Source of the DNA: a virus
Length of the DNA stretch: 64,000 nucleotides
Direction: 5' to 3' (one strand)
IMG/VR virus record: IMGVR_UViG_3300032092_003271
Coordinates: 32,920 to 96,919 of that record
A model generated the notes under the pieces. That model was not told the origin of the DNA and ran no database searches. It saw only the letters and a list, made by a program, of their open reading frames with translations. The translations under genes and the position numbers were made by a program. Shown here piece after piece: positions 14,308 to 44,221 of this stretch (positions within the stretch are counted from its first letter, which is position 1; the number at the start of each line of letters is the position of its first letter).

Positions 14308-14309
14308 AA

Positions 14310-15521: not shown

Positions 15522-15537
15522 AAATTTCTTTTGTAGA

Positions 15538-15566: not shown

Positions 15567-15570
15567 TAAT

Positions 15571-15602: not shown

Positions 15603-15625
15603 AATTTACGCCTGAAAAGTATTTT

Positions 15626-16243: not shown

Positions 16244-16244
16244 A

Positions 16245-16927: not shown

Positions 16928-16928
16928 T

Positions 16929-18276: not shown

Positions 18277-18291
18277 GGTATAGTTTTTACA

Positions 18292-18318
18292 ATAAATACT
18301 TTCATTTGTTGTATTTAT
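18292..18318. promoter_or_regulatory. back-to-back TATTTAT putative late promoters
   Basis: ATAAATA 18292-18298 (serves the minus gene) and TATTTAT 18312-18318 (serves the plus gene) in a 53-nt divergent gap. Confidence 0.6.
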
Positions 18319-18329
18319 AAGTAAAACAC

Positions 18330-21662: not shown

Positions 21663-24600
21663 ATGGCAAATCCATATAAAAATCCACAAACACCTTTATT
21701 AGCGGTTGGAACTTTCTCAGTTCAACCAAGTCAGACATTTGGTACTAATTTTAGTATATATAGTGTTGGTGGTTATATGGAAGTTTATGAACTTCAGGAT
21801 TTAATTTATACAATCCCAACTGGATCTCAAGGAGATATAGAATTTTCAGGTAATACAATTCCAATACAATTCCAAAAAGGTAGTGGATCGGTTTTCTCAC
21901 CTGACGTTTTAACATTAAATTCGGATAATATTTCGTCAGGTCGTAGAAGACTTGGTATGTTGGCGTATGTTTATTCAACACAAGAAATATTCCAATATAA
22001 TATCCCAAATTATACGACACTTTGGAATAACGCATTGGCGGCTTCAGGACCTGGTGGACCAACCGTACTACAATCAAAATTTGGAACCACAGTAAAAAGT
22101 AATTCAGCTGCAGGACAAGCGTTAATTAATGCTTGGACAGGATCAACAATTCAGGGTCACAGTGGTGGAACTGCCAATTCTAATTGGAGATTATTAGACA
22201 CAGGTGGATGTTGTATTACAGGATTTACATACAACAATGACAATAGTTTCACTATATACGATGATAATGGTGGTGTATTTACCGCATCTTTTGATGTTGT
22301 TACAGGATTGACAGTATCAGGAGGATCTTTAATTGTTAATGGTGTTAATATTACAGGTGACACATTTACAACAGGAGGTACATATTTTAGTGCAACAAGT
22401 ACAATAGATTTATATGACAATCAAGGGGGTATTGTTACAATTACAGGTATAACGGCATCAGGTGTTGCAGGATCAAACGGATCTTCAGGTTCTAGCGGTA
22501 CTTCAGGAACATCAGGAACATCAGGATCTAATGGATCTTCAGGTATATCCGGTTCTTCAGGATCTAGTGGGACTAGCGGAACATCAGGTGTAAGCGGTTT
22601 ATCAGGAACGAGCGGTTCTTCAGGTTCTTCAGGTTCTTCAGGAATTTCAGGATCTTCAGGGACTTCAGGAACTAGAGGTTCTTCAGGGACTTCAGGAACT
22701 TCAGGGACTAGAGGTTCTTCAGGTAGTTCAGGAAGTGGTGGTACAAGCGGTACAAGCGGAGTTAGTGGTGCGTCAGGAACTAGCGGTACAAACGGTACAA
22801 GCGGTAGTTCAGGAACATCAGGAAGTAGTGGTACAAACGGTACTTCAGGAACATCAGGAACTTCTGGTACAGGTGGTACTTCAGGTATAAACGGACAATC
22901 AAATTCATTATTCCCATATAACGCAAGAGTAGATATCCAATCAGGAGATCCAGGTAATACAAATATTATTTGGAATAATGTAACACAATCGGCATCAACA
23001 CAAATAAATATTTCACATTTAGATAATGATAATGATGATATTGATATATTTTTGGGGTTAATTCCAAGTGGAACAACAATTATTATCCAAGACCAAATTA
23101 ATTCAACTGAATTTCAAAAATGGATTGTTGGAGTTGGTGTTGAAGCGGCTCCCAATTCATATTGGACTTTTCCTGTTACATTAGTATCATCAACCATTGA
23201 ATTTACAGGTGGGGAAAATATATTATTTATTATAGGACAATTACCTTCTGGAACAAGTGGGGTATCAGGAACATCAGGAACATCAGGATCTAATGGTTCT
23301 TCAGGTACGTCAGGAAATAGCGGTACAGACGGAACTTCAGGGTCTAGTGGTTCTTCAGGAAGTAGTGGTTCTTCAGGAAGAAGTGGTTCTTCAGGTACGT
23401 CAGGAACTAGCGGTATAGATGGAAACGATTCTTCGAATAGTGGTAGATGGGGATATGAGGGCATTTCTACTACTCCCGGACCTGGTCGTTTTGGGACGGA
23501 TAACCCGGTAATGAGTTTAATTGGGTATGTCTACATAAATTCAGAAGCCGAAAACGGTGTAGATTATTCTACATGGCTTTCAGGAGTAGATAGTATACAA
23601 AACCTTGGATTCCCTGTTTCTTTACAAATTACACAGGTAGGTTCTAACAATATTATCGGTATATGGGAAGTTGTTTCTATTACTTCAACAGGTAGTGTTT
23701 ACGAGTTTCAAGTTGACCCGCCATTTGTTACAAATGGTACTATAACAGATACTTGTACAATATCATGGGTATATAATGGGATCAGTGGTTCTTCAGGTTC
23801 TTCAGGAATTTCAGGATCTTCAGGAATTTCAGGTTCTTCAGGTTCTTCAGGTTCTTCAGGTTCTTCAGGAATTTCAGGATCTTCAGGGACTTCAGGAACT
23901 AGAGGTTCTTCAGGGACTTCAGGGACTAGAGGTTCTTCAGGTAGTTCAGGTTCTTCAGGGACTTCAGGGACTAGAGGTTCTTCAGGGACTTCAGGGGCTT
24001 CAGTTGCCGTTAATGGTATCACAAATTACGTTGTTAAATTTACAGGGTCAACAGGTATCGGTAATAGTCAAATTTTTGATAATGGAACCACAGTAAGTAT
24101 CGGTACATCCGCATCGACTAGTAATTACAAATTAGATGTTCGTGGAGCAACCATTATGTCTGCAACAACAGGAACAAGTCTAACTGTAATTAGTTCAGGT
24201 AACAGTACATCGGCACCCGTACTTTCAGTCCAAGGATCACAAGGCGAATTGTTTAGTGTTACGGATAGTTTAATTGGATCTTTATTTTCCGTTAATGACA
24301 TTTCAGGTTTACCTATACTGGAGGTATTTTCTGATAGTACCACAATAATTGGTAACTATTTAGCGCCTTCATTATATACGACAACAAAAGTAACATCGAT
24401 AACTGCATCAACTGGAACAACAATATATTCAATACCGATCAGTGCATACACATCTTCATTTATTGATTATTATGTAAGTGGAGCCACAGGTATGAGAGCA
24501 GGTAATATTATGGCAATATGGAGCGGGACTACTGTACAATCAACAGATAATTCAACCGCAGACATCGGTAGTACAACACCTTTAACATTTGGGTTTTTGG

Positions 24601-24680
24601 TTTCGGGGTCAACAACATTATTTAGTGCGTCAGCATCAACAGGGAATTGGACTGTTGAGTCCATAATAAGGGCATTGTAA
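21663..24680 (+). CDS. fibre-like protein with three Gly-Ser/Thr-Ser triplet-repeat tracts
   Basis: (GSS/GTS)n tracts separated by globular domains; C-terminal phage fibre-like beta-rich region. Confidence 0.7.
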   Translation: MANPYKNPQTPLLAVGTFSVQPSQTFGTNFSIYSVGGYMEVYELQDLIYTIPTGSQGDIEFSGNTIPIQFQKGSGSVFSPDVLTLNSDNISSGRRRLGMLAYVYSTQEIFQYNIPNYTTLWNNALAASGPGGPTVLQSKFGTTVKSNSAAGQALINAWTGSTIQGHSGGTANSNWRLLDTGGCCITGFTYNNDNSFTIYDDNGGVFTASFDVVTGLTVSGGSLIVNGVNITGDTFTTGGTYFSATSTIDLYDNQGGIVTITGITASGVAGSNGSSGSSGTSGTSGTSGSNGSSGISGSSGSSGTSGTSGVSGLSGTSGSSGSSGSSGISGSSGTSGTRGSSGTSGTSGTRGSSGSSGSGGTSGTSGVSGASGTSGTNGTSGSSGTSGSSGTNGTSGTSGTSGTGGTSGINGQSNSLFPYNARVDIQSGDPGNTNIIWNNVTQSASTQINISHLDNDNDDIDIFLGLIPSGTTIIIQDQINSTEFQKWIVGVGVEAAPNSYWTFPVTLVSSTIEFTGGENILFIIGQLPSGTSGVSGTSGTSGSNGSSGTSGNSGTDGTSGSSGSSGSSGSSGRSGSSGTSGTSGIDGNDSSNSGRWGYEGISTTPGPGRFGTDNPVMSLIGYVYINSEAENGVDYSTWLSGVDSIQNLGFPVSLQITQVGSNNIIGIWEVVSITSTGSVYEFQVDPPFVTNGTITDTCTISWVYNGISGSSGSSGISGSSGISGSSGSSGSSGSSGISGSSGTSGTRGSSGTSGTRGSSGSSGSSGTSGTRGSSGTSGASVAVNGITNYVVKFTGSTGIGNSQIFDNGTTVSIGTSASTSNYKLDVRGATIMSATTGTSLTVISSGNSTSAPVLSVQGSQGELFSVTDSLIGSLFSVNDISGLPILEVFSDSTTIIGNYLAPSLYTTTKVTSITASTGTTIYSIPISAYTSSFIDYYVSGATGMRAGNIMAIWSGTTVQSTDNSTADIGSTTPLTFGFLVSGSTTLFSASASTGNWTVESIIRAL

Positions 24681-24681
24681 T

Positions 24682-25386
24682 ATGGCATTTAATTATTCAC
24701 CTAAAATAGTTACAGATAGATTAGCCATGTATTTAGATGCGGCTAACACCAAATCATATGTTTCAGGTTCAACTACCGCCTATTCATTAACTGGATCGAT
24801 TAACGGTTCATTAATTAATGGAACAGGATATAGTAATATAAATGGAGGGGCTTGGAGGTTTGACGGTATAGATGATAGTATTTTTTATGGTCTTCAACCA
24901 ATTAACTTTAATCCCTCAACTCAACCTTTCTCTATGGGTGGATGGGCCAATTTACTTTCAACCGGAGGAAATGGAAATAGGGCCGTAATATTAGACATAT
25001 GCGGTACTAATACATCTCGTTTATATATTGCTATAGATAAAACTAATTTACGTTTGATTGTTGATATAAGACCACCTGCCGGAACAGTTTACGTTCCAGT
25101 ATCCGGTAATACAAATTCAATTTCATTAGGAAGATGGGTTTATGGTATGGTTACATTCGATGGGGGTACTATTAATTTATATCAAAATGGAGAATTAATT
25201 AGTACCGCAACTGGTTTTACTAATTACCCCGTTATAAATTACAATTGGTATAGCGGATTTCAAGATGATGATGACGCAGATATGAATGGATATATAAGTT
25301 CAGTCTCATTTTATCTAAAAACATTATCGGCATCAGAAGTTCTCCAAAACTATAACGCAATTAAATCACGATACGGATTATTATAA
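24682..25386 (+). CDS. LamG/concanavalin A-like domain protein
   Basis: YLDAAN..SY, FDGIDD, W.Y.MVTFDG, LYQNG, LSASEVLQNYNA.K.RYGL. Confidence 0.85.
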   Translation: MAFNYSPKIVTDRLAMYLDAANTKSYVSGSTTAYSLTGSINGSLINGTGYSNINGGAWRFDGIDDSIFYGLQPINFNPSTQPFSMGGWANLLSTGGNGNRAVILDICGTNTSRLYIAIDKTNLRLIVDIRPPAGTVYVPVSGNTNSISLGRWVYGMVTFDGGTINLYQNGELISTATGFTNYPVINYNWYSGFQDDDDADMNGYISSVSFYLKTLSASEVLQNYNAIKSRYGLL

Positions 25387-26114
25387 TGGCAGGAAGAATA
25401 ACATATTACGGTGCTGTAGTAAAAGACGGTCTTGTTTTAGATTTAGATGCCGCAAAACGTGATTCATATATTGGAAATGGAATTGTATGGACGGATGTTT
25501 CAGGATTCCAAAATATTGGTACGTTAACAAATGGACCTACATTTGATTCAAACAATGGGGGTAGTATTCTATTTGATGGTGTAGATGATGAGGTTCTTGT
25601 TGGTAATGACCGTTATACTATGGTTTCGGCAATGACTTGGGACATATGGGTTAAAAGAATTTCTGATGGAAATGTATTCAACATGATGATGAGTAATTTT
25701 ATGCCATATATGGCTTTCAGAGGGACTGATAGCGGCTCAGACATAAATAAATTTAATGTTGCATACCGTACAGTCACAGGAGTTACGACAACTCAAAGAA
25801 ATTTATTAACGACAGGCGCAACTTTTAGTAATAACATATGGTATAATTTTACTTACACTTTATTGTATGATTTACAAAATCAACTTGCAACCGCAAAAAT
25901 TTATGTTAACGGAGTATTCAACACGTCATCTTCAAATAACAGTGATTCAGTTTACCAACCATCTGTAGGTAGTAGATTACGTTTAGGTAACTATACGTCA
26001 AATCAATATCCGTTTCCTGGTAACATTAGTAATTTTAAAATCTATCATAAAATACTTTCAGACTCAGAAGTTCTCCAAAACTATAATGCACTAAAAGGGA
26101 GGTACGGACTATGA
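25386..26114 (+). CDS. LamG/concanavalin A-like domain protein
   Basis: GLVLDLDAA, GTLTNGPTF, FDGVDD, WYNFT, IYVNG, LSDSEVLQNYNA. Confidence 0.85.
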   Translation: MAGRITYYGAVVKDGLVLDLDAAKRDSYIGNGIVWTDVSGFQNIGTLTNGPTFDSNNGGSILFDGVDDEVLVGNDRYTMVSAMTWDIWVKRISDGNVFNMMMSNFMPYMAFRGTDSGSDINKFNVAYRTVTGVTTTQRNLLTTGATFSNNIWYNFTYTLLYDLQNQLATAKIYVNGVFNTSSSNNSDSVYQPSVGSRLRLGNYTSNQYPFPGNISNFKIYHKILSDSEVLQNYNALKGRYGL

Positions 26115-26821
26115 GTACTCTATCAGGTGGTCCTAATATTGTGACCAATGGGTTGGTATTGTATTTGGATGCTGCAAACCCAAATTCATATGTTTCCGGA
26201 TCAACTACTTGGAGAGATATTTCTCGTAGTGTAAATAATGGGACATTGATAAATGGACCTACATACAGCAGTGCTAATGGTGGATCTATCGTTTTTGATG
26301 GTTCGGATGATTATGTAAATTTAGGTGTTAATTTAAATAATATTTTTATTGGTTCCTCATTCACCGTAAATATGTGGGTTTCTATTTCTATTAATTTACC
26401 GGACGGCAACGGTTATTCTCTAATATCTAACTATAGTGGTGATATTCCAACAAATAATGGGTTTCAATTAGGTTGGAGAGGTGGTTTGGGGGACACCTTA
26501 TACGCTTTTGGGGATGGGTATTTATCTCGTACACTAGATAACGTCACAGGATTAACCTCCAATGTTTGGTACAATATTACTTTTGTATATGTGAGAAACA
26601 CGTCAGGAAACATTTATTTAGATGGTATAAATAAAACCAATAATTCATTTACGAATACAGTTAACGCACCAAACCAAAATTTAAAATTAGGTGTAAGATC
26701 CGATAATAATACTTTCCCATGGTATGGTAAGATGGCAATCACCCAAGTCTATAATCGTGCACTAAGTGATTCTGAAATTTTACAAAACTATAACGCAATT
26801 AAATCACGATTCGGAGTTTAA
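26111..26821 (+). CDS. LamG/concanavalin A-like domain protein
   Basis: GLVLYLDAA, FDGSDDYV, WYNITF, IYLDG, YNRALSDSEILQNYNA. Confidence 0.85.
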   Translation: MSTLSGGPNIVTNGLVLYLDAANPNSYVSGSTTWRDISRSVNNGTLINGPTYSSANGGSIVFDGSDDYVNLGVNLNNIFIGSSFTVNMWVSISINLPDGNGYSLISNYSGDIPTNNGFQLGWRGGLGDTLYAFGDGYLSRTLDNVTGLTSNVWYNITFVYVRNTSGNIYLDGINKTNNSFTNTVNAPNQNLKLGVRSDNNTFPWYGKMAITQVYNRALSDSEILQNYNAIKSRFGV

Positions 26822-26920: not shown

Positions 26921-29062
26921 ATGGCAAATGAATTTGTTGCAAGGCGTGGTATAACATCTTTGGGTGGTATTACATTACCATATACGGGAGTAAGCTCCAC
27001 ATATACAATCAATACAAACAATTATTTCATTGATTGTACAAGTGGGACATTTACTGTCACCCTTCCGACTGCGGTTGGTATTGCGGGTCAAACTTTTATA
27101 ATAAAAAATAGCGGAGCAGGAACAATAACCGTTGCAACGACAGGTGGTCAAAGTATAGATGGGACTACAACAAAAACATTAACACAATACGAGTCAATAA
27201 CCGTACAAAGTGACGGATCCAATTGGGCTATTGGTAGTACCGCTGAAACGGGAGGATCGGCAATACCAGGTTCAAACAATCAACTATTAACTTCAGATGG
27301 TGCAGGTGGTGCGATTGCAGAATCATTATTAACGTTTGATGGTACAATTACGTCACCGTATTTAAATGTCAATTCAGTAAAAATCGGAAGGGGTAATAAC
27401 AATGTATCAACAAATATTTCAATTGGCGGGATTGCGTTTAGTTCTGGATCAACAGGGTGTAATAATACTGCGATAGGTTTAAATTCTCTTAGTGCTAACA
27501 CAACAGGATCTTTCAATATTGCGATAGGAGGATCCACTTTAAGCGCATCAACTATAGGTAATAGAAATATTGCAATTGGTCACCAATCTCTTCAATCAGG
27601 TGCCGGACTTTGTAATAACGTAGCGATTGGATATAAGTCAGGGGCTCGTTTAGGTAACAATCTCACTCCAACCGATAATATTTTTATTGGGTGTCAAGCT
27701 GGTTACGGTGCAAATACAGGAAATGTTAGTTTTGGTAATATATTATCTGATAATATTGCTATTGGCAAAAAAGCAGGATGTAGTATAGGAAGTAAATACA
27801 ATCCCTCAATATATTGTGGTAATAGTGGATATCCTGATTATATCAATGAGTATGCCCCGGGTTGGGCAACTAGTGGTAAAAATGTTTTTATAGGAAACTA
27901 CGCAGGACAAAATGCCACACCACCATCACCCTGTTCCCCAGCCGCAACAATAATAGGATATAATACGGCAATTGGTCATTGTTCAATGGCCTCTACCACA
28001 TATGGTAAATTAAATACTGCAATAGGATATGCATCTTTAAAATCTAATACCACAGGTAACTACAACGTAGCGATTGGGTTACATTCTCTTTGTTCTAATA
28101 CGTCGGGAAATTTAAACGTAGCAATAGGTACTTGTGCGTTACGTTTAAATACGACCGGAATTCAAAATAATGCGATGGGGTTTAGATCACTAGGAAAAAA
28201 TACATCCGGGCTTAGGAACACGGCAATAGGATATAATACTTTATACGCAAATACGACAGGTACTGATAACTTGGCACTTGGTCATCGTTCTTTATTATTT
28301 AACACTACGGGAGGTAATAACATTGGTTTAGGGGTTTATGCATTACGAAATAATACTACTGGAAACCGTAATACCGCAATAGGTTCAAACGCGTTACGGT
28401 GCAATACTACATGTTCAGATAACACAGCAATAGGGTACTTTGCTTTAGCTTCAAATGATATCTCAAATTTTAACACAGCTATAGGGTCCAATTCCCAAAG
28501 GAATTCCAGCACAGGTGGTGCTAATACTTCAATAGGAACGGATAGTTTAAGGTTTAACACAACAGGTGGTGGTAATAATGCAATAGGTTCCCGTGCTTTA
28601 TATGCTAACACAACAGGTGATGGTAATACAGCAATAGGTAGGAATACTTTATGTTCAAACACAACTGGATTTTTTAACGTAGCTATAGGATTTTATTCTT
28701 TAAATAAAAATACAAATGGCTCACGTAATATAGCAATAGGTAGAGATTCTTTATATGGAAGAACATCCAATTGTGATACAATTGCTATTGGATATAAGGC
28801 TTTTCGTGGTGGTGGTGGTCCATTTTTTCCTGATACTTGTACTACATCCCACAATATTGGTATTGGTGCATATGTAAATTTTGCATGTAATACAGTAGGT
28901 TCTGTTATTATAGGTAGATGTGCTACATCTACGGCAAGTAATCAATTTGTGATTGGTAGTACTACTAATATAGTAGGAGCCGTTACCACAGAAACTTGTT
29001 CTGCAACTAAAACATGGTCTGTAGTAATTAATGGAGTAGCACAAAAAATTCTACTTGCTTAA
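26921..29062 (+). CDS. tail fibre/adhesin with YadA-head-like 14-residue repeats
   Basis: many NTTG.xNxAIG..(A/S)L repeats; N-terminal fibre domain. Confidence 0.8.
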   Translation: MANEFVARRGITSLGGITLPYTGVSSTYTINTNNYFIDCTSGTFTVTLPTAVGIAGQTFIIKNSGAGTITVATTGGQSIDGTTTKTLTQYESITVQSDGSNWAIGSTAETGGSAIPGSNNQLLTSDGAGGAIAESLLTFDGTITSPYLNVNSVKIGRGNNNVSTNISIGGIAFSSGSTGCNNTAIGLNSLSANTTGSFNIAIGGSTLSASTIGNRNIAIGHQSLQSGAGLCNNVAIGYKSGARLGNNLTPTDNIFIGCQAGYGANTGNVSFGNILSDNIAIGKKAGCSIGSKYNPSIYCGNSGYPDYINEYAPGWATSGKNVFIGNYAGQNATPPSPCSPAATIIGYNTAIGHCSMASTTYGKLNTAIGYASLKSNTTGNYNVAIGLHSLCSNTSGNLNVAIGTCALRLNTTGIQNNAMGFRSLGKNTSGLRNTAIGYNTLYANTTGTDNLALGHRSLLFNTTGGNNIGLGVYALRNNTTGNRNTAIGSNALRCNTTCSDNTAIGYFALASNDISNFNTAIGSNSQRNSSTGGANTSIGTDSLRFNTTGGGNNAIGSRALYANTTGDGNTAIGRNTLCSNTTGFFNVAIGFYSLNKNTNGSRNIAIGRDSLYGRTSNCDTIAIGYKAFRGGGGPFFPDTCTTSHNIGIGAYVNFACNTVGSVIIGRCATSTASNQFVIGSTTNIVGAVTTETCSATKTWSVVINGVAQKILLA

Positions 29063-29120
29063 AAAATGACTTTGACATTTAAATTGTAACACTTATGTTT
29101 TATTAAACAAAATAAAATTT

Positions 29121-29942
29121 ATGGTGCAAAAAGTATTTTATAATCCATCCATGCCTAGAGCAGGATCAACCTTGATTCAAAACATTTTAATGCAAAATCC
29201 CGATATCTATTCAACCCCTACTTCAGGTGTAATTGAATTTTTATTGAATGCGAGATCAGTATATTCTGCGGGTGATTCATTTAGGGCTCAAGATCAGGAT
29301 GAAATGAAAAAAGGATTCAAAAATTTCTGCAAAACAGGACTATATGGTTTCTTTGACGGAATTACAGACCGTCCATACGTAATAGATAAGAGTAGATCGT
29401 GGTTAGGTCACTTTAACTTCATTGAGTTTTTTACGGATGAAAAACCAAAAATGATTGTTATGGTCCGTGATTTACGAGCAATATTTGCTTCAATGGAGAA
29501 AAATTTCCGTAAACACCCCGACAAAGACCCAATGATTATTAATGGTGTTGAATTAAAAAACATGACTACCGCCGCTCGAGTTGATCATTTTTCAATTTCT
29601 CCACCCATTGGTCCGTCTATTGAGTGGTTATCTGAGGCAATACATCAAGGAATAGATAAAGATATTTTATTTATAAGATTTGAAGATTTGACAGTGGATC
29701 CTGAAACTGAATTAATAAAAATCTATAATTATTTAGAACTACCATATTTTAAACATGACTTTAATAACGTAGAACAACTAACAAATGAAAATGATGTTAT
29801 ACATGGTATTTTTGGAGACCATAAAATTAAACCTCAAGTAAAACCTGTAAAGGATAATTTTATTGAAATTCTTGGAAAAGAACAATGTGATCGTTTACGA
29901 GAACATTATGATTGGTATTTTAGAGCCTTTAACTATATTTAA
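29121..29942 (+). CDS. PAPS-dependent sulfotransferase
   Basis: MPRAGSTL 5'-PSB loop, IDKSR, VRD.RAIFAS 3'-PB motif, IRFEDL..DP. Confidence 0.88.
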   Translation: MVQKVFYNPSMPRAGSTLIQNILMQNPDIYSTPTSGVIEFLLNARSVYSAGDSFRAQDQDEMKKGFKNFCKTGLYGFFDGITDRPYVIDKSRSWLGHFNFIEFFTDEKPKMIVMVRDLRAIFASMEKNFRKHPDKDPMIINGVELKNMTTAARVDHFSISPPIGPSIEWLSEAIHQGIDKDILFIRFEDLTVDPETELIKIYNYLELPYFKHDFNNVEQLTNENDVIHGIFGDHKIKPQVKPVKDNFIEILGKEQCDRLREHYDWYFRAFNYI

Positions 29943-29961
29943 TATTTATAAAAAAAACAAA

Positions 29962-30198
29962 ATGGAAGAAACACAAACAACAGAACAAGTGCAACAACAT
30001 ATTAGTGCGGCATTTGACTCGGTTAATTTAATTAACGAAGAAATCACTAAAGAAATGACCGATGAACGTAAAAACACAATAAAACGTAATGGTGATCATC
30101 TTGAAATTATGATGGCAAAAGGTTGGTTTTTATCGGGATGTACTGAACAACAGATTATCGATATTAATAATTCTATTACTACGTCAAAGTCGTATTAA
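29962..30198 (+). CDS. small protein, possible fibre assembly chaperone
   Basis: SAAFDSVNLI..RN..HLEIM; start moved to MEETQ (29962) with TATTTAT upstream; function inferred from context. Confidence 0.45.
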   Translation: MEETQTTEQVQQHISAAFDSVNLINEEITKEMTDERKNTIKRNGDHLEIMMAKGWFLSGCTEQQIIDINNSITTSKSY

Positions 30199-30210
30199 AA
30201 AATATTATAA

Positions 30211-31089
30211 ATGGAAGAAAAATATTTAGTGTGGCATATTCAGGGAGGTTTAGGTAAGAATGTTGCTGCAACATCATTAATAGACTCTTTATCTGTAAAA
30301 TATTCAGATAGGAAGATAGTGATAGTGGCATCATATCCCGAAGTATTTTTGAATCAAGAAAACATTTATAGAGTATATGGTTTAGGTAACACTCAATATT
30401 TTTATGATGATTATATAAAGGATAAAGATACTTTAGTATTTAGACACGAACCTTATTATGAGACTAATCATATACTAAAAAATAAACATCTATTATCCAA
30501 TTGGTGCAAATTATTAGGTATTGATTATGATTTTCAAAAACCAAAGTTATCTTTTAATTTTGCACAAAAAAGAATGTCTTTAAAATGGAAACGAGAAAAA
30601 CCAATTTTTTTAATTCAAACAAACGGAGGATCAATGATGTCAGACCAAGAATATTCTTGGGCTAGAGATTTACCATTTTCTATTTCATTAGAGGTTGTAG
30701 AAAAGTTTAAGGAAACTCATCACGTTATTCAAATTTGTAAACCGTCTTCATTAAAAATACCCGGAGTAGAAGTGATAAGTGATAATATGTCATCAATGGA
30801 GTTATTTACATTACTTTCGGTGACAGACAAACGATTGTTAATTGATTCTAGTTTACAACATGTGGCAACAGCAATGAATTTACCATCAACCGTAATTTGG
30901 ATTGCCACATCACCGACAAATTTTGGATATTCAATGCATAATAATATAGTTGCAAATCCACCTTCAGGTAACGTTAAATTAATTGGTTCTTATCTTTTTG
31001 ATTATTCTTTTGATGGTTTACCTCATGAGTGCCCTTATTACAGTTTGGATGAAATGTTCGACATTGATAAAATATTAGAAAGTTTATAA
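30211..31089 (+). CDS. GT9 (heptosyltransferase-like) glycosyltransferase
   Basis: GGLGKNV, LIDSSLQHVA.AM.LPSTVIW..TSP..FGY. Confidence 0.75.
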   Translation: MEEKYLVWHIQGGLGKNVAATSLIDSLSVKYSDRKIVIVASYPEVFLNQENIYRVYGLGNTQYFYDDYIKDKDTLVFRHEPYYETNHILKNKHLLSNWCKLLGIDYDFQKPKLSFNFAQKRMSLKWKREKPIFLIQTNGGSMMSDQEYSWARDLPFSISLEVVEKFKETHHVIQICKPSSLKIPGVEVISDNMSSMELFTLLSVTDKRLLIDSSLQHVATAMNLPSTVIWIATSPTNFGYSMHNNIVANPPSGNVKLIGSYLFDYSFDGLPHECPYYSLDEMFDIDKILESL

Positions 31090-31091
31090 TT

Positions 31092-31544
31092 ATGATATAT
31101 TGGTTTACAGGTCAGCCTGGTGCGGGAAAAACCTCAATCGCAAAATCCTTAATCGAAAAATTACCAAATAACACGTTCCATGTTGATGGTGACGATTTAA
31201 GAGAAATCTTTAATAACAAAGATTATAGTGAAACGGGTAGAAGAAAAAATATTGAGTTAGCTCAACACCTAACACATTTCTTACACAATAAAGGAAATAA
31301 TGTTTTGGTTAGTTTGGTTTCACCGTATAGAGATCAAAGAGAAGACTTTAAAAATAAATTAAATGGGTCTATAATTGAGATATATGTCCATACTGAACAT
31401 ATAAGAGGACGGGAAGATTTCCGTGTCAAAAATTATGAAGAACCTATTGATAATTTTTTAGATATGGATACATCTGATGTTCTAATAGAAACATGTGTTA
31501 ATCAAATTCTAAATTATGAAAAATTACATAGCAAAGGCGGATAA
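31092..31544 (+). CDS. cysC: adenylyl-sulfate (APS) kinase
   Basis: WFTGQPGAGKT P-loop, DGDDLR, DYS..GR..N, SLVSPYR..R, EIYV, YEEP. Confidence 0.9.
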   Translation: MIYWFTGQPGAGKTSIAKSLIEKLPNNTFHVDGDDLREIFNNKDYSETGRRKNIELAQHLTHFLHNKGNNVLVSLVSPYRDQREDFKNKLNGSIIEIYVHTEHIRGREDFRVKNYEEPIDNFLDMDTSDVLIETCVNQILNYEKLHSKGG

Positions 31545-31914
31545 AAAAACATCATCCACTGATAGACAATATTCTATGTTTGTGGGGCGATGGCAGCCCC
31601 TTCATTTAGGACATCAATGGTTATTTAACCAAGCTTTAGAAGAAGGTAAGAATGTTCTAATTTGTATTAGAGATGTTAAACCTGACGAAAAAAATCCTTT
31701 TACGCCTGAAGAGGTAAAATCTAATATAGAAAACCATTATGGTAATTTAATAACACAAGAACGTGTTAAAGTTATTGTGATTCCTGATATTGAGTCAATC
31801 AATTATGGTAGAGGCGTTGGTTATGATATTATCGAACATGTACCACCCCAAGATATTCACGATATTTCAGCCACTAAAGTTAGAGAACAAATGAGACAGG
31901 AGGGTAAGTTATGA
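31516..31914 (+). CDS. small HxGH nucleotidyltransferase
   Basis: FVGRWQPLHLGH, KNPF, ISATKVR. Confidence 0.8.
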   Translation: MKNYIAKADKKTSSTDRQYSMFVGRWQPLHLGHQWLFNQALEEGKNVLICIRDVKPDEKNPFTPEEVKSNIENHYGNLITQERVKVIVIPDIESINYGRGVGYDIIEHVPPQDIHDISATKVREQMRQEGKL

Positions 31915-32354
31915 AAGAAAAAATAAAAAAATTCCAAATTAGATTTAACGTTAATAGCACATCTGAAATTGATCGATGGAGATTAATTACTGATGGTGAT
32001 GAAAAATTGGTTAAAGATATTATAATTGATGGTCACACCTACACTTCTATGGATTGGATGGAGGATATTAATGAATACAAATGGCATGTTAGTTGTGAAG
32101 GTTATGTAACAATAACTAACAATGTTGCATATGTTGTAACCGTAAAAGAAGATGCTGCTATGGTTAGACACATATTAAAAACAATCTCTTATCGTTTTTT
32201 AGGTACTTTAACAACGATTGTTACAGCGTATTCGTTAGGAGTTTCTTTAGAGTTGTCATCTTTATTAGGTATTGGTGAACTCATGATAAAACCAGTTATG
32301 TACTTCTTCCACGAAAGAATTTGGTATAAGTATGTAAGAATAGGTAATAAATAA
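31911..32354 (+). CDS. DUF2061-domain membrane protein with an extra N-terminal domain
   Basis: R.ILKTISYR..GT..T...Y and K...YFFHERIW. Confidence 0.75.
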   Translation: MKEKIKKFQIRFNVNSTSEIDRWRLITDGDEKLVKDIIIDGHTYTSMDWMEDINEYKWHVSCEGYVTITNNVAYVVTVKEDAAMVRHILKTISYRFLGTLTTIVTAYSLGVSLELSSLLGIGELMIKPVMYFFHERIWYKYVRIGNK

Positions 32355-35147
32355 TTACCTATTATCAATATATAAATTTACTTCACTATAATACTCAATA
32401 AAGTGATCGTTCCATAGATCCCACTTTATATCAATACCATCAACTGAAAATACTTGATGGTTTGTAAATTCCTTTAAATATAAATCTCTAAACTTTCTAA
32501 ATTTGTTTTTGGTTTCTTTATTATGAAGATGCCACTCACCTGAGATTTTTTTAACATTGTTTTTAATCCAATTAAAGTTTTCTTCCGTAAAGATATTATA
32601 TTCACCACCTTCAGAATCTGTTTTAAGAAAATCAATTTTAGTAATACCATGTTCTTTAATTAAAGAATCAAATCTAACTGAATCCATTTGTGTTTGTACA
32701 CCAAGTTCTGCAGTAAACATATTACCCGTGTTTACAACCCCATCAGTGTCGGTAATTCCTTTATTAATGTGAACTACAAAATCTTTGTTTGTGTTTTTAA
32801 CTAAGTATGGGAACTCCTCATCACAAGGTTCAATAGAATAAATTACCGAAGGTTTTTTGTTTAATATAGAATATGTGAATGGACCAATACTTGCACCAAT
32901 GTCCATAACAACATCACCTTCTTCTACGGTAAAAAACTTCTCATAAATTCGTTCCTCAAAGATTTCTTTATTAATTGCCCATCTAAACCAATCATTAGAT
33001 TTACCCCAATCAAAATCAATTCTATCCCCAAGTAGTAAGTCAATTTTATCTATGACCATTTGTGATGTTATATTTTTGGTGCACTCAAATTGACGACTTG
33101 TGTTTTTATGTAGTGGACACCAATACCAATCACCAGCATCAAATTTTTCTTTATTAAAACATCCGTGACATACGTTCTCATTAATCACTCGATGAACTCC
33201 TGTTAACATCTCAGCGTTTTTTTCACTAAATCCTGAAATCAAAATTAAAGGTAATCCTGTAGACCATGCCAACCAAGATAATCCTGAACCTAAACCAATG
33301 AAGAATTCACAAGTTGCAAGATCATCAATTACTTCTTGAATTGATCCACCCTTAAATTTAGTTGCTCCATTTGGATTTTTGTTACCCATATATCCACTAT
33401 CTTCTTTTGAATATATCATAACTTCGTATCCTTTGTCTGTTAGATACTTAACCACTTCTTCCCAACCCAAAAGGTTGTTCCAATATTTTGATTGTGCCGT
33501 TGAATGGACCCCAATACCAATTTTCTTTTTCTTTGGTACCTTAGGTATTTTTAATTTTGGTTTCACTTCATTATAAGGTAACCCTAAAATATCAGACGCA
33601 GTTTGTTGTAATGGTATGTGTCTAAAATCATTTGGGTGTAAACTATAATTAACATTATCACCATCAAAGAACCAACCTATTTTATACAACGCATATAAAT
33701 CGTGTACTGGTTCACCAGGGTTTATAAATTTTATTTGTGGATATTGATCAATAAACAACTCATTCATAAATGTAGAAACAATCAATTCACAATTATGTTT
33801 TTTTCTAAACTCCTCACATTGTGGGAACCAAGCCATTGTATCGCCTAATGATTTAGATTCAAGTGCAATATAGACTCTTTTCTTGTTAAAGTTTGGTACG
33901 TGTTCGTAAACTAATTCATCTCCATCAAAAACTTTACAAGTAATATTTTTAAAATACTCAACAATAAGTTTTGACCACATATTTGCCTTAATCTCAGATT
34001 GATACATTAAATTATTTAAATCCCAAAACTCGACTCTATATAATTTTTGTGAACTACCTTTAATATCGATAGTTGGGTTACCAACAAAATGAAAACTAAA
34101 ACTTACATTATCTCTTGGTTCTTTATGCGTAATTTCAGTTTCTTCAAATGTTTTTATGTAAAGATTTTTGGTATCTTCGGATCTATAATGTTTATTGATT
34201 ATTTTAACTGACTTATAGATATCGATTAATCTTTTTGTTATTATCGACCAATCAAAATCAATCCTTGTTTCTATGGTTTCATGAAATAACTTACCCCAAT
34301 TTTCAATAACATATTTAAGACCACTAACTACTGACTCGGTGGATCTTCCAATCTTTCTTAATCCACCTATTTTTGGTGTTCCATCGTAAGTACCAACTGT
34401 TGGTAGTCCACATGACATAGCTTCTAATAATGTTAGATTAGGGTGTCCCGCTTCTAAAATCGATGGGTGTGCAAATATGGTATGTGATCGATATAATTCT
34501 CTTATTGATTCTTCGTCAGGGTTTCCATAAACCACATTTAACTTTTTATATTCTAATAAGTCAGGGTTAGCATCAAAAAAGTTTTTGTTGTTATCAGGAC
34601 CCGCAACTGTAATCTCAAGATCTAATTCTTTTGCTGCTTCTATGGCATATCTAAAACCTTTTCTATCAATTGATTGGTTATATGCAAAACCATTATTTGC
34701 AAGACATAATATTTTATGATTGAGCGATCCTTTTGGGTTTTGGTTATCAAAAAAATTAGTATCAACACCATGAGACAAATAAAATAATTTATCAGTTTCA
34801 ACAAAATAATCTACCAAAAATTCCGCATGACAAAATGATATAACAGAATTCTTTATTGCTTTTAAATTTAAATTATAAAGATCCGATTCTCTTCCATATT
34901 CAACAACGTGATGATCATGTAAAGAGAAAATATATGGTATTCCCATTTCATGGGCCTCAATAGCCAAGTTTGCAACATGGATATGAATTATGTCTGAGTT
35001 TCTATCTACTTCACTTAAATATTTAATTTCAGACTCATGACCTTGTTCTATTGAGTTTAAGTGGTAATTCCAAATTACCTTTTCAATTGCCCCCCAACCA
35101 TTTGGTGGTATTGCTATTAAACCTGGTGTTACTTGTGTTATCTTCAT
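32355..35147 (-). CDS. multidomain GT4 + Aah/TibC-like O-heptosyltransferase + FkbM methyltransferase
   Basis: GT4: GWGAIEK, E..NLTLLEAMSCGLP; TibC-like: SLGDTMAWFP, STAQSKYWNN..GW, FIGLGSGLSWLAW, ISGFS, CHGC..WCP.H...RQFECTK.I; FkbM: DIGASIG, IDFLKTDSEGGE. Confidence 0.85.
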   Translation of the reverse strand: MKITQVTPGLIAIPPNGWGAIEKVIWNYHLNSIEQGHESEIKYLSEVDRNSDIIHIHVANLAIEAHEMGIPYIFSLHDHHVVEYGRESDLYNLNLKAIKNSVISFCHAEFLVDYFVETDKLFYLSHGVDTNFFDNQNPKGSLNHKILCLANNGFAYNQSIDRKGFRYAIEAAKELDLEITVAGPDNNKNFFDANPDLLEYKKLNVVYGNPDEESIRELYRSHTIFAHPSILEAGHPNLTLLEAMSCGLPTVGTYDGTPKIGGLRKIGRSTESVVSGLKYVIENWGKLFHETIETRIDFDWSIITKRLIDIYKSVKIINKHYRSEDTKNLYIKTFEETEITHKEPRDNVSFSFHFVGNPTIDIKGSSQKLYRVEFWDLNNLMYQSEIKANMWSKLIVEYFKNITCKVFDGDELVYEHVPNFNKKRVYIALESKSLGDTMAWFPQCEEFRKKHNCELIVSTFMNELFIDQYPQIKFINPGEPVHDLYALYKIGWFFDGDNVNYSLHPNDFRHIPLQQTASDILGLPYNEVKPKLKIPKVPKKKKIGIGVHSTAQSKYWNNLLGWEEVVKYLTDKGYEVMIYSKEDSGYMGNKNPNGATKFKGGSIQEVIDDLATCEFFIGLGSGLSWLAWSTGLPLILISGFSEKNAEMLTGVHRVINENVCHGCFNKEKFDAGDWYWCPLHKNTSRQFECTKNITSQMVIDKIDLLLGDRIDFDWGKSNDWFRWAINKEIFEERIYEKFFTVEEGDVVMDIGASIGPFTYSILNKKPSVIYSIEPCDEEFPYLVKNTNKDFVVHINKGITDTDGVVNTGNMFTAELGVQTQMDSVRFDSLIKEHGITKIDFLKTDSEGGEYNIFTEENFNWIKNNVKKISGEWHLHNKETKNKFRKFRDLYLKEFTNHQVFSVDGIDIKWDLWNDHFIEYYSEVNLYIDNR

Positions 35148-35148
35148 A

Positions 35149-36870
35149 TTATGTAAATTCTAAATAACCGTATATGTTTTTATTTTCCATTTCATATAAA
35201 AACTCATCAGTTTCTGAGTTATATACTTTTATTTTTTTAATATTCTCCCAATAGATATTATATGACCACGCCCAAGAATAATTAAGGTAATGTATTATCT
35301 CTTCTTCATGATTATCAAATTCTATTATTATTTTTCTAATAACTCTATGGTTATTATAGTTAAATGATAAAATAGCTAAAGAATCTTGATTGTTAACTTT
35401 ATAAATTTTTGTGGTACAACCTTCATAAAACTCAGCTAAAGTTGATTGACTTGTTTCTGTATTCCACATTGTGTTAGGAAAATCTAAATTCATTTGGTCA
35501 CTACCATACTTACTTAAAATTAAATTGGTATTTGAATTCATTAGATTATGGAACATATAAACCTCTACTGATTTAAACTCATCACCAAATCCGTTATTTT
35601 TTAAATATTTTTTATATGATTCTTCACTATCAACTCTATTTATTTTTTCTAAAAAGAAATCAATTTCTGAGAAAAAATAATGAAAAGATATATCTTTTTC
35701 ATTAAAATAAAATAACGATTTTTTATTTTCGTTTTTACATAGTTCAGGAATTGTTTTCATAAATTCATATGATTCATCAGAAAACAAATCATCAACTTCC
35801 ATTCTTTGGAAATGTGTGTACCCAAGTGATTTTGCTAAATCCAAACAATTAAATAGATTACACATTACTGATAACCCATGTCTTTGTAATTCGGGAGTGA
35901 CTTCATGAATAGTAAATCCTTCATACGATTTCCATAGATCAACATAACTTACATTTTCATATTGTTCTTTAAACAATTTGTTTTCACTATTATATAAAAA
36001 ATAATCAACTTGTTCTATAAGATCTTGTGGTGGAACTTTATTAGAAACTAAAAGAATTTTATGATCGTGTTTTTTTAAATTACTAATTGCATCTCTAAGT
36101 TTAGATAATAAAGAATCATTGGATACAAAGCAATCTATAATTGTAATTGTTTTAATGTTTTTATTATAATCTTCTTTTAATCTATTTTTTACTTTGTTAA
36201 TATTTAATTCTTTTTCTTCCTCCGATAATGTTGAGAATATTCCTTTTTTAGAAATTCTGTAGTGACCCCCAAATATGTTTAAAAATTTTATTTTACCTTG
36301 TTTACTCAATTCATAATTAAGTGGCCAATCAACAAAAGGTAATCCCTCAAAATATTTTTTTATTATATTTTTTTTATTCCTAAAAACCCTACCAAAACCA
36401 ACATAATTAGTTTCTAATAAATCTTCAGTTGTAATATCTTCTTTTAGTGAAATTATAAATGCATCTTCTTCTTTAGGTGATGCATAATCTTCGTATAGAT
36501 ATTTTGTCGCAGTAAAAGTCATTACGTAGTCTGTGTTTTCATCTAAAAAATCAACCTGTTTTTGTAATTTATCTTTATCACCAAACAAATCATCACCATC
36601 TAAATACGCAATATATTCTGATTCAGAATTATCTAAAAGTAGTTTTATATTATTAAGAGCACCTAAATTTTCAGACCCATCCAAAATTTTAATTTCAGGG
36701 TATTTTAATTTTAATTCATTTAATTTTTCTTGAGTTTTATCAGTTGAGTTATCATCTCTAATTATAACATCAAAATCAAAATTAGTTTTTTGTTTAAAAA
36801 TTGAGTCGATACAATCAAAGACGTATTGTTCAAAATTATATAATGGTACTATAACTGATAATTTTTTCAT
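35149..36870 (-). CDS. GT2 glycosyltransferase with uncharacterised C-terminal domain
   Basis: SVIVPLYN, DDNSTD, NLG...N, YIAYLDGDD, KLQKQVDFL. Confidence 0.85.
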   Translation of the reverse strand: MKKLSVIVPLYNFEQYVFDCIDSIFKQKTNFDFDVIIRDDNSTDKTQEKLNELKLKYPEIKILDGSENLGALNNIKLLLDNSESEYIAYLDGDDLFGDKDKLQKQVDFLDENTDYVMTFTATKYLYEDYASPKEEDAFIISLKEDITTEDLLETNYVGFGRVFRNKKNIIKKYFEGLPFVDWPLNYELSKQGKIKFLNIFGGHYRISKKGIFSTLSEEEKELNINKVKNRLKEDYNKNIKTITIIDCFVSNDSLLSKLRDAISNLKKHDHKILLVSNKVPPQDLIEQVDYFLYNSENKLFKEQYENVSYVDLWKSYEGFTIHEVTPELQRHGLSVMCNLFNCLDLAKSLGYTHFQRMEVDDLFSDESYEFMKTIPELCKNENKKSLFYFNEKDISFHYFFSEIDFFLEKINRVDSEESYKKYLKNNGFGDEFKSVEVYMFHNLMNSNTNLILSKYGSDQMNLDFPNTMWNTETSQSTLAEFYEGCTTKIYKVNNQDSLAILSFNYNNHRVIRKIIIEFDNHEEEIIHYLNYSWAWSYNIYWENIKKIKVYNSETDEFLYEMENKNIYGYLEFT

Positions 36871-37445
36871 TTATATATTTTTTTTGCAGGGACACCAACG
36901 TATGTTCCAGGTTCGTTTATATTCGATACTACTGCAGCACCCATACCTATTGTGGATAATGAATGGACACTAATTTTTTCTCTAATAGATGAATTATTTC
37001 CCATATAGACACAATCATATATTTTAACATTACCGGAAACTATTGATCCTGGCATCATAGAAAAATAATCACCTATTTCACAATCATGACCAATTTGGTT
37101 TCCCCTATTTAATAATGCGTGTTTACCAATTTTTATGTTTGTTGTTATTATTGAATTTGCTCCAATAAAAGAACCTTCACCAATTTTGACATCATCAGAT
37201 ATGATTGCGGTTGGGTGTATCCATGTGAAATATTTTGTATTTTTTGGTAATCTATTTGCAACGTCAAATCTATTTTTTGGGTCAGCAATTGCTATGATTA
37301 TTTCATATTCTTTGGTGTTAAATTCTGACAATGGTTTTGTGTGTTCATTAACATATTGGTCATCAACAAAACAAGTAATCTTTTCCCCCATCTGAAACAT
37401 AACCTCTCTTGCGTGGCCTCCATAACCTATCAGTGCTTTTTTCAT
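36867..37445 (-). CDS. PglD/NeuD/PerB-family sugar acetyltransferase
   Basis: IGYGGHAREV, IHPTA, IGHDC, hexapeptide repeats, VGVPAK. Confidence 0.88.
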   Translation of the reverse strand: MKKALIGYGGHAREVMFQMGEKITCFVDDQYVNEHTKPLSEFNTKEYEIIIAIADPKNRFDVANRLPKNTKYFTWIHPTAIISDDVKIGEGSFIGANSIITTNIKIGKHALLNRGNQIGHDCEIGDYFSMMPGSIVSGNVKIYDCVYMGNNSSIREKISVHSLSTIGMGAAVVSNINEPGTYVGVPAKKIYK

Positions 37446-38749
37446 TAGTTAAATCTATATTTTTTAGGATCAAAATAATGTTCATACCAAGATGAAACAT
37501 TTTCATTATAGTAACTCTTCCAAGTATGTGGGGACATACCAATCCACCTTTCTTGTATTGATCTGTTATTATTAGTTTCAATTTTTAATTTAGATAAATT
37601 GGGTAGTGTATTAATGTAAGAATTATTTGCCCACCAAAAATTACCTGAAAAATAATTTTTAAACTCATATTCTAAAAATTTAAAATACTCAACATATAAG
37701 GCTCCTGACAAGTCACAATCTTTATTTTTTAAGTCTTTAAATGGTATACTCCAATTTTCAATACAAAAATATTCTAAACATTCTCTCCATGATTCTATAT
37801 TAGAATCATAAGGTCTTGAGGTTCCTTTTGTGTGAAAATAAAATGTACTTCCACATGGGTTTAAATATGAATAATTTTGTAATTTAATTAAAGTTAAAAA
37901 TTCATCTTCATTTTTTTCATACCAACAAATATTAATTTTCTTATCAATGTCATGGGTTTTAACAATTTTGTTAAACAAATTAAAATCATCATACGATTCT
38001 GTAATAACATTATAAAATATTTGATCAGATCTTTTATATAATCCAAAATCTGATAACTTTTGGAGTTGAGATTGTAATACGTGAACCCAATTATTTTGTA
38101 AAAAATTATGGGAGAATATGGAAACTTTATGATTTTTTATTAAACCAATTCCTCCCCATAAACTATAATGTGTATTTTGTAGTAATTTATGGAATTCATT
38201 ATCTTTTGAGTATTTGTCGTCTTTTTCTTTTGCAAAAAACGTATAATATTCATTATAGTTTTCTATAATTTCGTCCCAAAATTTGTATACAAAAATATCA
38301 TATTCTTTAGTAACATCACTCTCAACAACATCATGAAATGCCAAATAACCGTCATCTGCCAAAAATTGTTTAAATTTATCATAATCATTTTTCACCCCAT
38401 TGTATGAGTGATCCCCGTCAATAAAAATTAAATCAAATTCAACACCTAAATTTTTAATAATTTCAACTGTGTCGTTTGATGTTGAATCCCCAATAATATA
38501 GTTAAAGTTTGGATATGTTTGTTTTATAGTATCAAAATTTTCGTGGTGTTTAATGTCAATTGCAATTACCTTTTCATATAAATGACATAATGCGACTGAA
38601 GTACCACCAAAGTTACTACCAATTTCTAAGGCGTATTTTCTTTTTTTTGTATTACTTAAATGATCTAAAAACAATTTGAATTCTTCGGGTTTTTGTTCAA
38701 TGTTAAATTTTAAACACGAATTCCAAATAGTATTAAAATTATAATTCAT
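37445..38749 (-). CDS. Methyltransf_24 domain fused to a putative glycosyltransferase domain
   Basis: LEIGSNFGGT, FIDGDHSY.GV..D, AFHD; C half YFHTKG, WR..LEYF, FSGNFWWA. Confidence 0.75.
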   Translation of the reverse strand: MNYNFNTIWNSCLKFNIEQKPEEFKLFLDHLSNTKKRKYALEIGSNFGGTSVALCHLYEKVIAIDIKHHENFDTIKQTYPNFNYIIGDSTSNDTVEIIKNLGVEFDLIFIDGDHSYNGVKNDYDKFKQFLADDGYLAFHDVVESDVTKEYDIFVYKFWDEIIENYNEYYTFFAKEKDDKYSKDNEFHKLLQNTHYSLWGGIGLIKNHKVSIFSHNFLQNNWVHVLQSQLQKLSDFGLYKRSDQIFYNVITESYDDFNLFNKIVKTHDIDKKINICWYEKNEDEFLTLIKLQNYSYLNPCGSTFYFHTKGTSRPYDSNIESWRECLEYFCIENWSIPFKDLKNKDCDLSGALYVEYFKFLEYEFKNYFSGNFWWANNSYINTLPNLSKLKIETNNNRSIQERWIGMSPHTWKSYYNENVSSWYEHYFDPKKYRFN

Positions 38750-38750
38750 T

Positions 38751-39545: not shown

Positions 39546-39546
39546 A

Positions 39547-43952: not shown

Positions 43953-43956
43953 TAAT

Positions 43957-44214
43957 ATGAAAATAACAGATATAACACCAAACGACCCAACAATATATGT
44001 TGGTTTGTTGACAGAAGAACAAAAAAATCAATTAAACGGCCAATGGTTTGCACCTGATAGTTATTTCTATGCGGTACAAGATATAAACGATAATTGGTTT
44101 ATATCAATTATAGAAATTATGAATTGTGTAAATCCTGATTTTTTATGGGTTAAAGATTTAGATTTAATCCCTTATGATCCAAAAATTGATAACATGCCCC
44201 TAATAGAAAGTTAA
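43957..44214 (+). CDS. small hypothetical protein (possible chaperone for the upstream protein)
   Basis: acidic 85-aa ORF tightly following a LamG gene. Confidence 0.5.
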   Translation: MKITDITPNDPTIYVGLLTEEQKNQLNGQWFAPDSYFYAVQDINDNWFISIIEIMNCVNPDFLWVKDLDLIPYDPKIDNMPLIES

Positions 44215-44221
44215 AAATAAA

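Follow-up and report, generated by a model that had tools for sequence, protein, structure and literature searches.

We describe here a six-gene cassette of a large marine phage, at positions 29121-32354 of a 64,000-nucleotide stretch of DNA (positions 32,920 to 96,919 of IMG/VR record IMGVR_UViG_3300032092_003271; hereafter, the window), in which a nucleotidyltransferase (NT) of 132 aa is probably, judging from comparative sequence evidence, a new and very small ATP sulfurylase. The other genes code for a sulfotransferase, a small protein, a glycosyltransferase family 9 (GT9)-like protein, a short adenosine 5'-phosphosulfate (APS) kinase, and a DUF2061 protein, and we consider it quite likely that the six form one operon supplying the phage with activated sulfate, i.e., 3'-phosphoadenosine 5'-phosphosulfate (PAPS), as well as a use for it, with NT as the ATP sulfurylase. 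To our knowledge, ATP sulfurylase is the only entry to activated sulfate, and textbooks hold two types only, Sat and CysDN; what is probably new here is sulfate activation by another, minimal enzyme family. The adjacency of NT to APS kinase, fusions of the two in both orders, a distribution complementary to that of Sat and CysDN, and the replacement in place of cysDN together point to sulfate adenylylation.

A first-pass annotation, made from the letters of the window alone, had described these six genes as following directly after an adhesin gene. All six were indeed found as co-oriented open reading frames (ORFs), abutting or overlapping, with families as described, and the gene that precedes them (26921-29062) matches tail-spike and virion structural PHROGs. 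The NT gene overlaps cysC upstream by 29 nt and the DUF2061 gene downstream by 4 nt. The features of the cassette are as follows:

29121-29942, + strand: PAPS-dependent sulfotransferase, 273 aa (PF13469, PF00685, PAPS-binding motifs)
29962-30198 (ORF from 29863), + strand: small acidic protein, no family match, start likely Met34
30211-31089, + strand: GT-B glycosyltransferase with predicted GT9 (heptosyltransferase) fold, 292 aa (AlphaFold model and Foldseek)
31092-31544, + strand: short-form APS kinase, 150 aa (PF01583, TIGR00455, motifs)
31516-31914, + strand: HIGH-superfamily nucleotidyltransferase (NT), 132 aa, candidate minimal ATP sulfurylase (motifs, comparative evidence)
31911-32354, + strand: DUF2061 membrane protein with a soluble N-terminal extension of ~85 aa (PF09834, 1.9e-13)

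NT is a single-domain protein, without the PUA-like N-terminal domain of Sat, that carries the motifs GRWQPLHLGH and ISATKVR and matches PF01467 (1.3e-6). The archaeal and NadM-type nicotinamide mononucleotide (NMN) adenylyltransferases (NMNATs; 1f9a, 1ej2, 2qjo) share ~30-35% identity with it over the first ~80 residues, and its scores against NMNAT models are low (28.8 vs 181.2 bits for TIGR01527, 35.4 vs 127 for NF002243, and 38 vs 409 for the NadM models). Whereas the NMNAT core of ~170 aa is complete, NT lacks ~23 residues after the DIE motif, as phmmer pairs its residues 20-94 and 109-130 with NMNAT residues 6-83 and 121-143; the missing segment probably corresponds to the second-substrate subdomain of NMNAT. 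The AlphaFold model of NT (predicted local distance difference test, pLDDT, 89; predicted template modelling score, pTM, 0.81) retrieves at the top ranks of a fold search NMNAT 1f9a (Z 9.9), PPAT 4nah (9.8), NadM (9.0), and NadR (8.5); for the Thermus thermophilus ATP sulfurylase 1v47, 117 residues align with Z 7.7, and the remaining sulfurylases score Z 5.1-6.1 (1r6x, 2gks, 1j70, and 1x6v at 5.8-6.1). Foldseek alignments of the same model are mostly confined to the first ~77 residues.

The NT family is large, with 7455 near-length matches that, at E < 1e-10, include members of 539 clusters of 50% identity, and full-text literature searches returned no description of it. Near-invariant positions (alignment numbering) are G24, R25, H30, G32, H33, R52, P61, D91, G98, R99, G102, Y103, S118, T120, and R123, and both HxGH and ISxTxxR are near-invariant. 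Where NMNAT has “GS” after strand 2, the family has a near-invariant “RD” (R52-D53, opposite “GS” in two of the three printed alignments), and it has in addition a new, invariant GR(G)VGY loop. By sequence, NT is thus a branch of the HIGH superfamily close to NMNAT and NadM and not a trimmed Sat, and its fixed extra arginines on a stripped NMNAT-like fold would fit a small anionic second substrate. The first-pass annotation had proposed that this protein supplies APS and thereby makes the PAPS pathway self-contained; the proposal gains support from the comparative evidence presented below, with the refinement that the protein belongs to this NMNAT-like branch.

The APS kinase (31092-31544) passes the PF01583 cut-off (2e-17, 64.1 bits against 21.1) and fails that of TIGR00455 (1.2e-19, 70.6 bits against 138.7), its match extending from the start of the profile no further than about position 105 of 152, hence our designation as a short form. 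Aligned with canonical CysC, it retains the P-loop GQPGAGKT, DGDDLR, YSETGRRKN, and VSP. This short subfamily alternates with canonical CysC of ~200 aa beside NT in cellular loci. A NadR-type ribosylnicotinamide kinase was considered and rejected, as fused or neighboring copies of the kinase reach 1e-60/1e-72 on the APS_kinase profile. A complex prediction for the short kinase and NT, run without controls, scored 0.00, which counts neither for nor against a complex of the two. In one MG-III archaeon (L034:7596-7995), the short kinase 5' of NT is broken into two ORFs by a frameshift or a sequencing error.

The partnership between NT and APS kinase is the most regular feature of the family, and the neighborhood and fusion analysis that the first-pass annotation had proposed as a check came out in its favor. 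The family is common in viruses (at least 579 IMG/VR stretches), and in the best 80 viral loci among these, to which all viral counts below refer, an APS kinase gene lies directly 5' of NT or overlaps it in 80/80. Among 80 cellular loci, a kinase, be it of the short form or a canonical CysC of 200 aa, is adjacent to, near, or fused to NT in about 58. These loci come from SAR406/Marinimicrobia, Marinoscillum, Flavobacteriales, Saprospiraceae, Chitinophagaceae, and MG-III archaea, as well as from Pelagibacteraceae, Nitrospiraceae, Dadabacteria, and Thermodesulfobacteriota; on chromosomes of the last two groups, cysC is placed elsewhere, away from NT. The two genes are also fused in both orders, with full-length, high-scoring CysC domains, the kinase being first (P0123, P0126, P0152, P0157) or NT first (P0200, P0201, P0234, P0276, P0294, P0311; APS_kinase E down to 7e-60).

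Sulfotransfer_5 is the top Pfam family within three genes of the APS kinase-NT pair (107 neighbors in 20 cellular loci), and CysQ-like proteins are also present. One closed Marinimicrobia chromosome that has neither Sat nor CysD carries the pair in a locus of capsule type, with a sulfotransferase (7.8e-48) as neighbor. In viruses, a sulfotransferase is found in 19 of the 80 loci and a GT9-like gene in 19, both together in 18, the other two loci ending at a contig edge. Since 18 other viral contigs unite the same five families of the cassette, although with the order shuffled, and two end-cut contigs have some of them, their arrangement is not a matter of chance. A blastn search of the cassette against the phage collection gave no match.

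Some loci stand apart from these. The complete cassette (sulfotransferase 2e-74, kinase, NT, DUF2061, GT9-like 1e-52) is found on a 62.6-kb contig of a Flavobacteriaceae metagenome-assembled genome (MAG; L004), and CysD is present in the same genome; the contig, perhaps a phage that was binned with it or a prophage, is a weak hint at the host group. Other NT-fusion proteins (P0133, P0135, P0127, P0148, P0235) join NT to N-terminal regions of ~200-300 aa (with PF07460 in P0135 and no extra precomputed Pfam domain in P0133), and further fusion partners are DUF59 (PF01883, with the JGI name “FeS assembly SUF system protein”), DUF6717, and a HAD phosphatase (PF00702), which could, from its sequence family, be a phosphatase related to 3'-phosphoadenosine 5'-phosphate (PAP) or pyrophosphate (PPi).

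The distribution of NT in cells is complementary to that of the known sulfurylases. Among 55 NT-bearing cellular genomes, 53 have an APS kinase, five have Sat, and two have CysD; 46 of the 53 genomes with both NT and APS kinase, several closed chromosomes included, hold neither Sat nor CysD. Nitrospiraceae account for three of the five genomes with Sat (G190, G005, G189; loci L173, L174, L175), and their Sat domains, found in Sat-CysC fusion proteins, have lost catalytic residues (FQTQSLVHRVH/IVEPNYAAPG; IVGWDYASPG; HPLYRVH/IVGQDYASPE). They resemble the inactive Sat-like domain found on the APS kinase of Thiobacillus; the Nitrospiraceae hold, in addition, a separate NT gene.

Two clades were sampled for this contrast. 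Samples drawn at the level of phylum and order around the Marinimicrobia genome contain only three NT-bearing genomes and serve mainly as a control: in the order (61 genomes), all three have APS kinase without Sat or CysD, whereas the 41 genomes lacking NT with a strong APS kinase have Sat in 39 cases, a CysD-like gene with a CysN-APS kinase fusion in one, and neither in one. In one Flavobacteriales family (61 genomes), 15 genomes have APS kinase and NT without CysD or Sat, while CysD is present in 37/37 of those with APS kinase and without NT. The replacement can even be located in a Flavobacteriales operon with the order GcvH, TonB_C, cysC, X, unknown, CysQ-like Inositol_P, flippase, three sulfotransferases, Wzy-like, where X is either NT (L177, L180, L181) or cysD-cysN (L178, L179). 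We give this synteny the greatest weight: as NT swaps with cysD-cysN at this position, it fills the sulfate-adenylyltransferase slot of a sulfated-polysaccharide operon. NadD is above its cut-off in 5/5 NT-bearing genomes checked; NT is, therefore, not needed for their NAD synthesis.

Profile searches of the whole 96.9-kb record found no Sat, PAPS_reduct (CysD/CysH), or CysN, which extends to the record what the first-pass annotation had noticed for the window, and Sat and PAPS_reduct were likewise not found in three related phages that are 92-100% complete (250-321 kb), one of which has the full cassette. Because PAPS reductase is absent from the record and from these near-complete relatives, cysC does not appear to feed sulfate reduction; the sole PAPS user in sight is the sulfotransferase of the same operon, and the earlier suggestion that cysC serves here for sulfation, and not as an assimilation gene, agrees with this gene content. 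The sulfotransferase, the only one in the record, matches PF13469 (4.7e-13, 50.3 bits, cut-off 27) and PF00685 (1.9e-10) and retains both PAPS-binding motifs, PRAGST (5'-phosphosulfate-binding) and RDLRAIFAS (3'-phosphate-binding). Its sulfate acceptor is possibly a virion protein, a virion glycan, or a host envelope glycan.

Three further proteins complete the cassette. For the 292-aa protein, the GT9 Pfam match is below threshold (8.6e-4, 19.1 vs 22 bits), and its AlphaFold model (pLDDT 88.6) has GT9 enzymes as top Foldseek matches (3tov 7.6e-11, WaaF 1psw 3.7e-9, TibC 5e-8, WaaC 1.4e-7); on this model, it is a glycosyltransferase of family 9 fold, nearest to heptosyltransferases, with structural neighbors that span lipopolysaccharide heptosyltransferases and the protein heptosyltransferase TibC. 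Profile searches of the small ORF (29863-30198) gave no family, and its start is probably Met34 (29962) because its homologues, at the equivalent position in L084, L085, and L103, are only 86-87 aa long. DUF2061, a small two-helix membrane domain, lies near the APS kinase-NT pair in 32 of the 80 viral loci, forms the N-terminal part of an APS kinase fusion protein in Chitinophagaceae (L057:3686-4384, L072:7318-8016), and is found just 3' of NT in other bacteria (L004, L049), so that it seems to be part of the PAPS module in cells too; full-text literature searches gave no account of it in sulfation.

We propose the following scheme for the cassette. NT would hold ATP through HxGH and ISxTxxR and move its AMP onto sulfate, giving APS and PPi; the overlapping short APS kinase would then, judging from its family and motifs, phosphorylate the 3'-OH of APS to PAPS and, by trapping APS in this form, draw the unfavorable first reaction forward. 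The sulfotransferase would pass the sulfate to a sugar installed or extended by the linked GT9-fold glycosyltransferase, the acceptor glycan being presumably a product of the surrounding glycan genes, which form an island of ~40 kb. DUF2061 might, more speculatively, tether the module to the membrane. As for its origin, the NT family would descend from NMNAT/NadM-like ancestors through loss of the large second-substrate subdomain and fixation of R52 and R99 where a small anion could bind, giving a third, non-orthologous kind of ATP sulfurylase alongside Sat and CysDN. More broadly, we find it rather likely that this NMNAT-derived family of 110-135 aa arose independently, as a third class of ATP sulfurylase, and has taken the place of Sat or CysDN among streamlined bacteria and archaea of the sea (SAR406, Flavobacteriales, MG-III, and others), and that large phages carry NT together with a short APS kinase as a portable source of PAPS, here feeding the decoration of a virion or host glycan by sulfotransferase and GT9.

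Several observations weigh against assigning sulfate adenylylation to NT. Its match to PF01747 (ATP-sulfurylase) covers ~38 residues around HxGH and falls below threshold (0.0036, 17.2 bits against a cut-off of 24.3; 12.3 bits in the genome-wide profile search), and the sulfate-binding QxRNP of Sat is not reproduced, the Arg standing one position earlier and a Gln replacing the Asn. An hhalign comparison with Sat pairs “ICIRD” with “IVGRD” at 86% probability and skips HxGH or puts it out of register, so that this IRD/GRD pairing may be a local similarity only. The named relatives of NT are NadM or archaeal NMN adenylyltransferases (NCBIfam 1e-9; PDB 2qjo 4.9e-7), NT has kept GRxQPxHxGH, NPF, and DIE motifs like those of NMNAT, and its fold is nearer to 1f9a (Z 9.9) than to ATP sulfurylase (Z 7.7). 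In the short APS kinase, the lid that canonical CysC has (KGLYKKAR...FTGI) is deleted. The Fisher p-values of the contrasts in Marinimicrobia (NT vs Sat/CysD, p = 3e-4) and Flavobacteriales (NT vs CysD, p = 2e-13) overstate the support because genomes within a clade are not independent, and most genomes surveyed are MAGs or single-amplified genomes. Lastly, many viral pairs sit in DUF3310-APS kinase-NT-DNA methyltransferase operons with no sulfotransferase nearby, and the APS kinase-NT fusion of Xylella phage Salvo (L176, gp32) sits among DNA-metabolism genes; the product of the pair may, therefore, have uses beyond glycan sulfation.

An operon of this methyltransferase type is found in a 321-kb phage with terminal repeats (L096:5178-7265), where DUF3310, a short APS kinase, a 133-aa NT, and an N6/N4 DNA methyltransferase are free of any sulfotransferase within 6 kb. 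APS kinase-NT fusions of cultured Xylella, Xanthomonas, and Stenotrophomonas phages (H1-H9) are annotated “kinase” or “hypothetical”, and the one in Salvo has a MazG-like pyrophosphatase as well as a “cysteine dioxygenase” nearby.

Other functions for NT have to be weighed against these data. It could be a true adenylyltransferase of NMN or nicotinic acid mononucleotide for NAD salvage, for example refilling NAD during infection, the proximity of cysC being then uninformative. Its top sequence and fold matches (NadM and archaeal NMNAT) speak for this, as do the GRxQPxHxGH, NPF, DIE, and ISxTxxR motifs common to both, and relatives are sometimes named NMN adenylyltransferase in the sources, nadM being listed among virome auxiliary genes (PMC8066274). 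We nonetheless regard such a function as very improbable: NT lies far under the cut-off of every NMNAT model, what we take to be the NMN-binding subdomain has lost ~23 residues, no NAD-salvage partner (Nampt, Nudix) was seen in the scanned viral and cellular NT neighborhoods, and neither the invariable viral adjacency to APS kinase, the fusions in both orders, the replacement of cysDN in place, nor the presence of NadD in the five genomes checked is what a NAD-salvage enzyme would lead one to expect. We give equally little credence to an HldC-like sugar-1-phosphate adenylyltransferase making an ADP-sugar (of the ADP-heptose type) for the GT9-fold neighbor, with APS coming from the host. In favor of it, GT9 enzymes use ADP-heptose, the protein next door has a GT9 fold, and HldC, a small HIGH nucleotidyltransferase, appears in the NT fold list at Z 6.3; yet a GT9-like gene accompanies NT in only the 19 viral loci mentioned above, against APS kinase in all 80, phmmer, run over the 80 cellular loci, detected one in L004 only, possibly phage DNA itself, and the Flavobacteriales loci in which NT replaces cysDN have no GT9 gene. 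Other ADP-heptose pathway genes are absent from the scanned parts of the window and loci, where no dedicated search for them was made.

Somewhat more probable, though still unlikely in our opinion, is a role for NT as a partner of APS kinase other than sulfurylase, be it as a regulatory or scaffold subunit or in another adenylyl transfer, with APS or PAPS as its substrate, and with APS coming from the host or from an unrecognised sulfurylase. Fusion and adjacency reveal a partnership and not the reaction catalyzed, an inactive Sat-like domain fused to APS kinase is known (PDB 3cr8, in the NT fold list), and the DNA methyltransferase contexts hint at other uses. The near-invariance of HxGH and ISxTxxR across the family argues, on the contrary, for catalysis, and a mere partner would leave the 46 genomes devoid of Sat and CysD without a source of APS and would not be expected exactly in the cysDN slot. 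We, thus, favor the reading of NT as an ATP sulfurylase.

The record itself has an estimated CheckV completeness of 31%, and the window has a G+C content of ~30% and no tRNA genes. From its PHROG matches, among them tail fibre, tail spike, head-tail adaptor, DNA polymerase, and helicase, we conclude that the virus is a large tailed phage. The features flanking the cassette are the following:

26921-29062, + strand: tail-spike-like virion structural protein (phrog_6002 3e-68, phrog_4636 1e-64), preceding the cassette
29072-29099, + strand: promoter-like site TTGACA-16-TATGTT inside the 58-nt gap 5' of the cassette, a weak pointer
32355-42144, - strand: convergent glycan block (GT1/GT9-FkbM methyltransferase fusion, GT2, PglD-like acetyltransferase, sugar O-methyltransferase, GT1-FkbM-DegT fusion)

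In a promoter and terminator scan of the region, sites were no commoner than in shuffled sequence. The glycan genes (1-18366 and 32355-42144, - strand) comprise GDP-mannose 4,6-dehydratase, GT2, GT11, GT1, DegT, PglD-like, and O-methyltransferase genes amid virion structural genes, and include GT-FkbM fusion proteins of 865 and 930 aa. The region 21663-26821 codes for a collagen-repeat protein of 1005 aa (PF01391, 1.5e-35) and, after it, for three paralogues in tandem (~235 aa) with matches to phrog_24074 and phrog_8510, which are virion structural families; more copies of this domain lie at 42201-45943.

The proposed system has counterparts among known ones. Sat or CysDN with CysC, and the bifunctional PAPS synthases (human PAPSS1, 1x6v; Aquifex Sat-CysC, 2gks), likewise pair or fuse a HIGH adenylyltransferase with APS kinase, in either order, and PAPS synthesis systems are likewise found with sulfotransferases and a CysQ-type PAP phosphatase. 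The enzymes themselves differ: Sat has ~350-400 aa, a PUA-like N-terminal domain, QxRNP, and GRDHAG (looked for in NT and not found), whereas NT proteins have 110-135 aa without these and group with NMNAT; CysD has a PAPS-reductase fold and a GTPase partner, whereas NT is unrelated to it and needs no GTPase partner gene. An analogy may be drawn with PPAT and dephospho-CoA kinase (CoA synthase), where a small HIGH adenylyltransferase is followed by a P-loop kinase acting on the 3'-OH of the adenylate, the two being fused in some lineages, with the difference that the kinase there is CoaE, while the one next to NT is of CysC type (PF01583, to 1e-60/1e-72) in a sulfation context. Virome surveys file cysC under sulfur assimilation and nadM under NAD metabolism, as separate auxiliary genes (PMC8066274); the same gene families stand here in one operon with a sulfotransferase and without PAPS reductase.

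If NT is indeed an ATP sulfurylase, it would account for the many genomes and phages that have cysC yet no known sulfurylase, and the annotations “cytidyltransferase-like”, “nadM”, and “kinase” given to NT genes would need correcting. A single-domain enzyme of ~130 residues would also be a very small part for enzymatic PAPS regeneration, and the cultured Xylella, Xanthomonas, and Stenotrophomonas phages with the APS kinase-NT fusion are possible experimental handles. Viral cysC would then have to be counted as sulfation, and not as assimilation, in sulfur-cycle surveys, and sulfated glycans may be widespread on the surfaces of abundant marine microbes and large phages.

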